Of a stretch of 64,000 nt of DNA, positions 12,129 through 12,270 are shown piece after piece (position 1 is the stretch's first letter; every line of letters starts with the position of its first letter). The notes under the pieces were generated by a model that worked only from the letters and a program-made list of their open reading frames with translations, searched no databases and was not told the origin of the DNA. The translations under genes and the position numbers were made by a program. This DNA is from Escherichia phage S127 BCL3, in the sequence record OQ626344; one strand, 5' to 3'.

Positions 12129-12270
12129 TCTCATTTTTATAATAATTCTCAAATATCGAGGCAGTGAGGCAAATTAATAGGCCAGGCCGTTCACACAGTG
12201 GCACAACATTTGCAATCTATCTTGTGGGAGTGAATGAGAATACCTATCATTGTGAGAATGGTTATCATTA
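12129..12270. promoter_or_regulatory. cluster of Fur-box-like sites (GAGAAYNNTTATCATT)
   Basis: Tandem GAGAATACCTATCATT (12236-12251) and GAGAATGGTTATCATT (12254-12269), plus a degenerate inverted copy at 12129-12150. The reverse complement of 12254-12270 matches 15/19 of GATAATGATAATCATTATC. Confidence 0.45.

Follow-up and report, generated by a model that had tools for sequence, protein, structure and literature searches.

Bacterial iron genes are the textbook setting for Fur boxes, and sites for host regulators can also be carried by phages, as exemplified by the Fur control of stx1 and the Pho boxes of cyanophages. A Fur box is likewise found upstream of sitABCD on lambdoid prophages (PMC6969025). 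In each of these systems, a site for a host regulator resides on a phage genome, answers the nutrient status of the host, and governs an adjacent cargo or metabolic gene, mostly in temperate phages. Here, we examine a 64,000-nucleotide stretch (the window) of Escherichia phage S127 BCL3 (sequence record OQ626344), in which a palindrome that resembles the Fur box of Escherichia coli recurs within two islands that lack open reading frames (ORFs). In contrast to the prophage, stx1 and cyanophage sites, these palindromes form arrays in non-coding islands of virulent phages. They appear to represent an element of a known kind, a predicted Fur operator, in a new setting: phased arrays within gene-free islands of virulent phages.

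The source phage is an rV5-like E. coli myovirus (Vequintavirus), with 95–100% identity to phages B9-1, ECP32, and EI-SP-GF in the regions tested. According to the ORF list, island 1 (11103–13661) is a 2.5-kb ORF-free gap that separates convergent gene blocks. Its counterpart in the annotations of Bas52 and navn, from bas52_0131 to bas52_0132, holds no coding sequence at all, and the Figure 2 legend of the rV5 genome paper presents it as a ‘non-coding’ box, which has gone unexplained since 2013. Island 2 (approximately 23738–24952 in the same list) lies within a block of small minus-strand genes and has no conserved ORF; its contents are promoters and GC-rich elements, together with Fur-like boxes and with iteron-like repeats whose families were listed by a repeat search. 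No strand is assigned to the islands, nor to the boxes, leader, and direct repeats described below. With confidence that stands at about even, we propose that the boxes are operators for the host Fe2+-Fur protein, which would tie the transcription of both islands to iron. The boxes would thereby give a first clue to the function of the 2.5-kb ‘non-coding’ box of the rV5 map.

The palindrome and its likeness to the E. coli Fur box

The full repeat unit is a 19-base-pair (bp) imperfect palindrome, AATGAKAAYNRTTMTCATT, of the general form AATGAKAAT-N-ATTMTCATT (9-1-9). When up to three mismatches are allowed, it matches the window nine times against an expectation of 0.54, and none of 100 dinucleotide-preserving shuffles attained nine matches. 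The two islands hold seven of these nine matches, with three in island 1 and four in island 2.

In island 1, box A (12117–12135; AATGGGAATACTTCTCATT) scores 13.5 bits under the E. coli-derived matrix described below and is invariant across five Vequintavirus sequences. A weak neighbour follows at 12135–12153 (10.4 bits), and these two sites better place what the first-pass annotation had recorded as a single inverted, degenerate copy at 12129–12150. Further along the island, boxes C (12233–12251; AATGAGAATACCTATCATT; 15.9 bits) and D (12251–12269; TGTGAGAATGGTTATCATT; 17.5 bits) have starts that are offset by 18 bp and share one base. They account for the tandem copies reported earlier, which are indeed present (GAGAATACCTATCATT at 12236 and GAGAATGGTTATCATT at 12254), and are labelled merely ‘repeat_region’ in two GenBank records, among them that of phage navn.

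In island 2, box E (24193–24211; AATGAGAACGGTTATCATT) reaches 21.1 bits and is overlapped, at an offset of 6 bp, by box E' (24199–24217; 17.2 bits). Box F (24329–24347; AACGAGAATGATTATCATT) has the top score in the window, at 22.1 bits, and box G (24358–24376; AATGAGAACTTTTCGCATT; 13.0 bits) starts 29 bp past the start of F. An unprompted repeat search also retrieved E, F, and G, with spacings of 136 and 29 bp. The first-pass annotation had correctly placed GAGAACGGTTATCATT at 24196, whereas its second copy in this island, GAGAATGATTATCATT, starts at 24332 rather than 24334. All four of the copies that it named exist, but G and the overlapping E' had been overlooked.

To obtain a Fur matrix independently of the phage sites, an unseeded palindromic Gibbs sampler with a width of 19 was run on ten promoter regions that Fur represses in E. 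coli K-12 (fepA-fes, fepD-entS, fepB-entC, fhuA, cirA, fecA, ryhB, tonB, exbB, and fiu); the best three of twelve runs were identical. The resulting consensus, AATGATAATAATTATCATT, has a 9-1-9 register that matches the phage motif. Training sites score between 9.7 and 21.7 bits (2.8 to 20.3 on leave-one-out), and when 32 kb of E. coli DNA was scanned, only the Fur-regulated intergenic regions reached 15 bits or more. The comparison of matrix scores with background, which had been proposed in the first-pass annotation, came out in favour of Fur: boxes A, C, D, E, E', F, and G are the seven highest-scoring positions of the 64-kb window (13.0–22.1 bits), with scores in the range of the training sites. 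Five sites in the window score at least 15 bits and eight score at least 12 bits, compared with 0.17 and 0.8, respectively, in 64 kb simulated with a first-order Markov model. As far as sequence scores can tell, therefore, the Fur reading is supported.

The likeness extends to the classical Fur consensus, GATAATGATAATCATTATC (7-1-7 core TGATAATnATTATCA). The four copies named earlier match it at 13, 15, 16, and 15 of 19 positions, which bears out the original observation of a resemblance, and their register agrees with that of the motif sampled de novo from E. coli; of the four window positions with at least 15 of 19 matches, three are named phage sites. One part of that observation did not survive. 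The TTCTC that had been described as an extra conserved flank is the reverse complement of GAGAA, and thus the other half of the palindrome. It is also present in sampled host sites with an ATTCTC half, namely those of ryhB (AATAATAATCATTCTCATT), fhuA (TATAATAATCATTCTCGTT), and exbB (ATTGATAGTCGTTCTCATT). The promoter regions of these three genes, along with that of fepD-entS, were bound by Fur in gel shift experiments (Chen 2007).

The phage boxes and the E. coli Fur box thus share the same 19-bp, 9-1-9 palindrome and register, and the phage scores equal or exceed those of host sites. The commonest half-site base is identical between phage and E. coli at eight of nine positions. Crystal structures of Fur bound to DNA indicate that recognition depends on a single G, on one or two T, and on the narrowness of an AT minor groove, and that other changes are tolerated (Deng 2015). 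The closest correspondence is with the E. coli ryhB box, AATGAGAATGATTATTATT, which is matched at 18 of 19 positions by AATGAGAATGATTATCATT, a site found in phages GAP31, ukendt, and CB7. For spacing, the picture is mixed. Host Fur clusters overlap at 3- or 6-bp offsets (Chen 2007), and copies overlapping at 6 bp occur both at E/E' and in a related contig (L129), which carries the cluster AATGCAAATGATAATGATAATTATTCTCATT, with sites at 5620, 5626, and 5632, as well as a site identical to that of ryhB. Boxes C and D are offset by 18 bp, and the dominant array spacing is 29 bp. Several other regulatory sites were also considered (ArgR, KdgR, the RcsAB box, CRP, the DnaA box, Zur, and the UvrY/GacA box), and were rejected, as either the spacing or the half-site differs.

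Conservation across Vequintavirus and related genera

Relatives were drawn from an annotated phage collection; a locus search with the two flanking proteins gave just three and two loci. Across the whole genome of Bas52 (137 kb), the five top-scoring sites are those of the same two islands. A tblastn search of Bas52 for a Fur homologue, with E. coli Fur as the query, found none. Within Vequintavirus, the half-sites are kept and the central bases of the boxes vary. In the most divergent contig (L128), the G-bearing and T-bearing halves are swapped in both C and D.

The boxes are conserved well beyond this group. Box F is the copy that recurs in every related genus examined: it has a counterpart at 14 loci, drawn from Seunavirus, Certrevirus, Mydovirus, and Phapecoctavirus, whose hosts include Cronobacter, Salmonella, Pectobacterium, Enterobacter, Klebsiella, and E. 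coli, and the arrays comprise one to seven copies. A 76-nucleotide (nt) stretch around box F retains 80–88% identity in genera whose other non-coding DNA fails to align. The layout is constant in all 14 loci: first a σ70-type promoter (P2), then approximately 55 nt of conserved leader, the first box, up to six more boxes, and finally iteron-like repeats. The first box scores at least 18 bits in every one of these loci, and in 10 of the 14 it is identical to AATGAGAATGATTATCATT (24.0 bits). Further boxes mostly follow at exact 29-bp steps, and the spacers between them are not conserved.

Similar conclusions can be drawn for the islands as units. ORF-poor islands homologous to island 2 were found in six distant phages, and BLAST detected no similarity to island 1 beyond Vequintavirus. 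In the 50 kb of the Cronobacter phage GAP31 that were examined, the best sites nevertheless fall in its island 2 and in its convergent ORF-free region. Together with the top five sites of Bas52, this strengthens the link that the first-pass annotation had drawn between the two islands through their shared sites. Since the best GAP31 sites occupy both regions even though island 1 lacks BLAST similarity outside Vequintavirus, the two-island pattern appears to be kept by selection, beyond mere inheritance.

The abundance of boxes also admits a different use of Fur. At least seven boxes per genome, multiplied by hundreds of replicated copies, might titrate the protein, derepress the iron-uptake and iron-sparing regulon of the host, and so feed the iron-dependent ribonucleotide reductases of the phage. 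Multicopy Fur boxes do derepress Fur-regulated genes in the Fur titration assay (FURTA), and the phages possess multiple high-scoring sites in DNA that has no adjacent regulated gene. Six to seven boxes occur in phiWec190, long arrays exist in other viral contigs, and the Bas52 annotation includes both class I and class III ribonucleotide reductases. Titration needs no fixed position, however, yet the first box is exactly placed after a conserved leader and promoter in the 14 loci. Several genera carry just one or two boxes, and in phage T5, which has boxes of its own, early degradation of host DNA removes the supposed benefit. We consider such a sink for Fur to be unlikely.

Arrays in T5 and other unrelated phages

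An exact search of IMG/VR with the palindrome returned at least 120 stretches, and many of the contigs carry arrays. Among the matches listed, the start-to-start spacing of neighbouring strong sites has a sharp peak at 29 bp (at least 17 pairs in at least 13 loci), and the boxes span viral contigs with GC contents of 21% to 53%. Dense arrays, with up to nine matches per 200 bp, were observed in the IMG/VR sequences L026 (21% GC), L010 (a 345-kb contig), L072, L097, L004/L028, and L098. The first of these, L026, had no match in the phage collection. The 120 contigs listed for a degenerate 17-mer in IMG/VR were for the most part unrelated and included no rV5 relative, and this search was set aside as too unspecific for assessing conservation.

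Another unrelated carrier is phage T5 (NC_005859; L210 in our set). Its boxes lie at 9552 (19.3 bits), 9656 (24.0 bits; AATGAGAATCATTATCATT), and 9691 (18.9 bits), with extra overlapping copies at +6 bp. Together (9552–9710), they fall inside the annotated injection stop signal (9140–9720), which is ORF-free and located between the convergent genes T5.017 (plus strand) and T5.018 (minus strand), and they are near the estimated shear point of first-step transfer at 9618. A longer array with 29-bp spacing is present in the T5-like Salmonella phage SP01 (L024). Many conserved palindromes and repeats have been described in the T5 injection-stop region, without a function and with Fur unmentioned (Davison, bioRxiv 10.1101/866236). 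We infer that the boxes correspond to the repeats named DRC and palE to palJ in that study.

This region of T5 (Wang 2005; Davison, bioRxiv 10.1101/866236) resembles the present locus in its array of the same motif, placed where a large ORF-free region separates convergent genes. T5-like phages conserve this region. Island 1 of the window is likewise situated between convergent gene blocks. Unlike the islands described here, the T5 array is part of the terminal repeat and lies beside DnaA boxes. In the literature that was searched, no connection between Fur and phages of the T5-like or rV5-like type was found, nor any transcriptome of an rV5-like phage. The correspondence with T5 provides a concrete candidate protein, Fur, for the injection-stop repeats.

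It also raises the prospect of an architectural element, whereby arrays of Fur or of another protein form a nucleoprotein structure for DNA transactions rather than transcription, such as origin firing beside the iteron-like repeats, or a stop or anchor of the kind seen at the T5 injection stop. The location of boxes inside this signal and near the 9618 shear point is consistent with such a role, as are the regular 29-bp phasing in at least 13 loci and the placement, in both types of phage, of boxes and other repeats in large ORF-free regions between convergent genes. Set against this, the boxes of island 2 go together with a conserved promoter. These phages have no mapped origin, and in rV5 a skew analysis was uninformative. 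Two-step injection, furthermore, is not known to have been reported for rV5-like phages. On balance, an architectural role strikes us as decidedly improbable.

The occurrence of the same boxes in unrelated phages makes a shared host factor a simpler explanation than a shared phage protein. No conserved regulator ORF was found adjoining the boxes; the small plus-strand ORFs near them vary by genus and are missing from the window. Because a host factor fits unrelated phages, because no conserved regulator gene adjoins the boxes, and because the half-sites agree at eight of nine positions, operators for Fe2+-Fur are our preferred reading. A broader proposal can be made more tentatively, and we would regard it as possible rather than probable: that these arrays represent an undescribed module shared by unrelated virulent enterobacterial phages, in which 29-bp-phased consensus Fur boxes, located in the largest ORF-free regions, enlist host Fur, either to sense iron or to serve as a building block. 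The holders of such a module would be rV5-like, phAPEC8-like, and T5-like phages, and possibly the jumbo and low-GC phages from IMG/VR. It could gate origin-proximal transcription or control a RyhB-style phage small RNA, and in T5 it could contribute to the injection-stop signal.

Promoters, predicted Fur control, and neighbouring elements

Rightward promoter-like sequences accompany the boxes in island 2. The first, P1 (24096–24124, plus strand), consists of TTGACA, a 17-nt spacer, and CACAAT, with a TG ahead of the second hexamer, and matches the consensus at 10 of 12 positions. P2 (24240–24270, plus strand), which was read directly from the sequence, has the −35 hexamer TTGCTT (24240–24245) and an extended −10 element, TGaTACTAT (24259–24267), that overlaps a TATAAT (24265–24270). 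P2 points at boxes F and G. Its −35 CTTG and −10 region are kept in eight phages, and its GAP31 counterpart was called a promoter by a consensus scan. Between P2 and box F is a conserved GC-rich leader (24277–24328; …GGGAGACAATCACCGGGGGTGCCCGTTATTCTGCA), a paralogue of which (24138–24190) precedes box E. The GAP31 boxes also sit just upstream of a third rightward promoter.

Vequintavirus has two copies of the unit of promoter, GC-rich leader, and box (core GGGAGACAAnCACCGGGG at 24160 and 24294), and in other genera, an element of approximately 90 nt replaces the first unit. This element begins at the predicted P1 start (acgccaccccacggcgaaaaggcggggctaacgtaccggg…ggtggatcgccggtag) and was found at L132 1310–1400, with homologues in 12 distant loci; it is not recognisable in the window. 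It is conserved at the DNA level across subfamilies, and its minus strand reads as a hairpin followed by a U-run, terminator-like, with several G·U pairs. It had no Rfam match, and may represent a small RNA or a terminator.

A weak leftward candidate promoter, PL (24321–24350, minus strand), was also read from the sequence. Its −35 TTGAAT (24350–24345) and −10 CAGAAT (24326–24321) are separated by 18 nt, and this spacer falls within box F. It matches the consensus at 8 of 12 positions, which is under the promoter-scan threshold, and its −35 TTGAAT is kept in 10 of the 14 distant loci. The idea that PL is a clean Fur-repressed promoter was downgraded, given that the −10 is CTGAAT or CGGAAT in 5 of the 14 relatives. 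Instead of a −10 element, the conserved AGAATG at this position may be half a Fur site, 18 bp from the box centre. A hairpin and U-run are conserved approximately 200 nt downstream of PL, on the same strand, in Seunavirus, Certrevirus, Mydovirus, and Phapecoctavirus, and a Fur-repressed phage small RNA from PL is therefore possible. In the window, the leftward RNA from PL is not structured, its folding being no stronger than that of shuffled sequence (z = +1.0). The annotated gene bas52_0101 (24062–24346 in the window, minus strand, 94 codons), whose ATG is inside box F, was not accepted as genuine: a ribosome-binding site is lacking, and the GAP31 frame, as read by eye, closes after 26 codons. 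It is probably a mis-annotation.

If host Fur does act on these phages, its operation can be envisaged as follows. Where the host is replete with iron, dimers of Fe2+-Fur would be bound to boxes that are paired or arrayed at 6, 18, or 29 bp, and the bound protein would limit transcription that starts beside the boxes or crosses them. For island 2, this would affect rightward reading from P2, just ahead of the iteron-like repeat block, and the weak leftward PL, with box F as its spacer, may be affected too. For island 1, it would affect whatever crosses the centre of the 2.5-kb convergent gap. Once iron became scarce, Fur would leave and the non-coding transcripts of the islands would change; as it would leave the boxes of both islands, both would answer to one host signal. 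Here, we infer from the sequence that Fur binds, which promoter is controlled, and in which direction the effect runs. A precedent may exist in E. coli ftnA, where an upstream array of Fur boxes reportedly counteracts H-NS silencing. As in the phages, several boxes lie off the core promoter in AT-rich DNA, which would indicate that arrays outside the −35/−10 region can be functional.

Such control, if true, would mean that a strictly lytic phage family reads or manipulates the iron status of its host, with the boxes as the best-conserved feature of its gene-free islands. The rV5-like phages have therapeutic uses. Infected animals are normally iron-limited, and the performance of these phages in vivo could therefore depend on iron.

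Several points weigh against operators for Fur. The matrix was built on ten sampled sites only. At half-site position 6, G is present in 27 of 40 phage half-sites versus 3 of 20 in E. coli (Fisher p = 2.5e-4, with phage sites that are not independent). The 29-bp array period is no multiple of the 3- and 6-bp offsets of the host. Unlike E. coli Fur boxes, those of the phages lie in ORF-free DNA of a virulent phage, where no iron-related gene adjoins them, and downstream of a promoter rather than over its −35/−10: they are positioned at about +54 to +100 from the P2 start, and no box clearly covers a strong promoter. PL is weak, and the five relatives with a divergent −10 lack its key A at position 2. 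Lastly, T5 destroys host DNA early, and so, at least in T5, the role would not be the control of host genes. Owing to the G at position 6, the 29-bp phasing, and the lack of both a nearby iron gene and a plainly covered strong promoter, the titration of Fur and an architectural role stay in contention, together with recognition by some other protein.

In this last alternative, a phage-encoded protein or another host factor reads the palindrome, as its own operator or as an origin-binding site, and the likeness to Fur is coincidence or mimicry. A distinct protein would fit both the preference at position 6, which E. coli Fur sites do not share, and the strict 29-bp periodicity, which is unlike host Fur clusters. 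The boxes also have iteron-like repeats and tandem promoters as neighbours, an arrangement known from replication-control regions. Most phage genes have no assigned function, and Pfam returned no match for seven ORFs neighbouring the islands. However, no conserved regulator gene accompanies the boxes, and the protein would have to be common to T5-like siphoviruses and to other viral contigs across the whole range of GC content. The half-sites, moreover, depart from E. coli Fur sites in their commonest base at position 6 and nowhere else. This alternative is, in our estimation, rather unlikely.

The palindromes might instead act at the RNA level, as hairpins in the P2 transcript or in a leftward one. 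The boxes do lie within predicted transcripts, and each is able to form a short AU-rich stem. Stems of this composition, with a lone central base that cannot make a loop, speak against a hairpin role, as does a G·A or U·C mismatch between positions 6 and 14 in most copies, which is never compensated. The flanking GC-rich leader has no conserved fold on either strand, and no Rfam family was credible in the window and four distant loci at gathering and E-value thresholds. Given the uncompensated mismatch, the missing fold, and the lack of an Rfam family, we disfavour this explanation and consider it very improbable.

Immediately to the right of the island-2 boxes are three iteron-like direct repeats of approximately 50 nt (24465–24645; AAAATC..ATT..GAAAACGAAAAACAGATCGAGTACT), which correspond to families D1 and D3 of the repeat search. 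Distant genera have analogous AATACGAT…TCGATCGAGAACC repeats. The combination of these repeats with three tandem promoters aimed at them suggests a replication origin or a similar cis element.

Other features of island 2 concern its promoters and its left edge. A GC-rich motif, GGCCCCGCCAGGT, occurs four times (23861, 24027, 24041, and 24104), with at least one copy in the spacer of a σ70-like promoter; promoter spacers of relatives are similarly GC-rich, and the motif may mark a phage-specific class of promoters. Just upstream of the P2 −35, a TGTAAAG-N4-TGTAAAG direct repeat (GTAAA-N5-GTAAA) is present at L132 1410–1436 and in 11 other distant loci, which belong to Seunavirus, Certrevirus, Mydovirus, and Phapecoctavirus; it is missing from the window. 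We take this repeat to match the consensus of the CpxR box, which hints that more than one host regulator has sites in island 2. The left edge of the island bears, on the minus strand (23964–23998), a strong GGAGG and, after it, a mini-ORF of six codons, MIPLEM plus stop (23984 down to 23964).

Among the database records, approximately 20 labelled ‘Campylobacter phage’ (MG0656xx) share more than 90% identity with this E. coli Vequintavirus, and their host labels look doubtful.

Island 1 is densely packed with further repeats of its own. The sequence ACTGTTTACG is present in at least four copies, and an exact 20-mer, GCCATGCCATTCGTTTGCAT, occurs at both 12706 and 12980. A perfect 18-nt inverted repeat (12815–12832 and 12949–12966) flanks nested palindromes. 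Finally, the block at 12274–12330 is the same in all five Vequintavirus sequences, and its core (about 12277–12308) is partly recognisable in GAP31 (gtggtgcgcataa..gtattatgttaaat).

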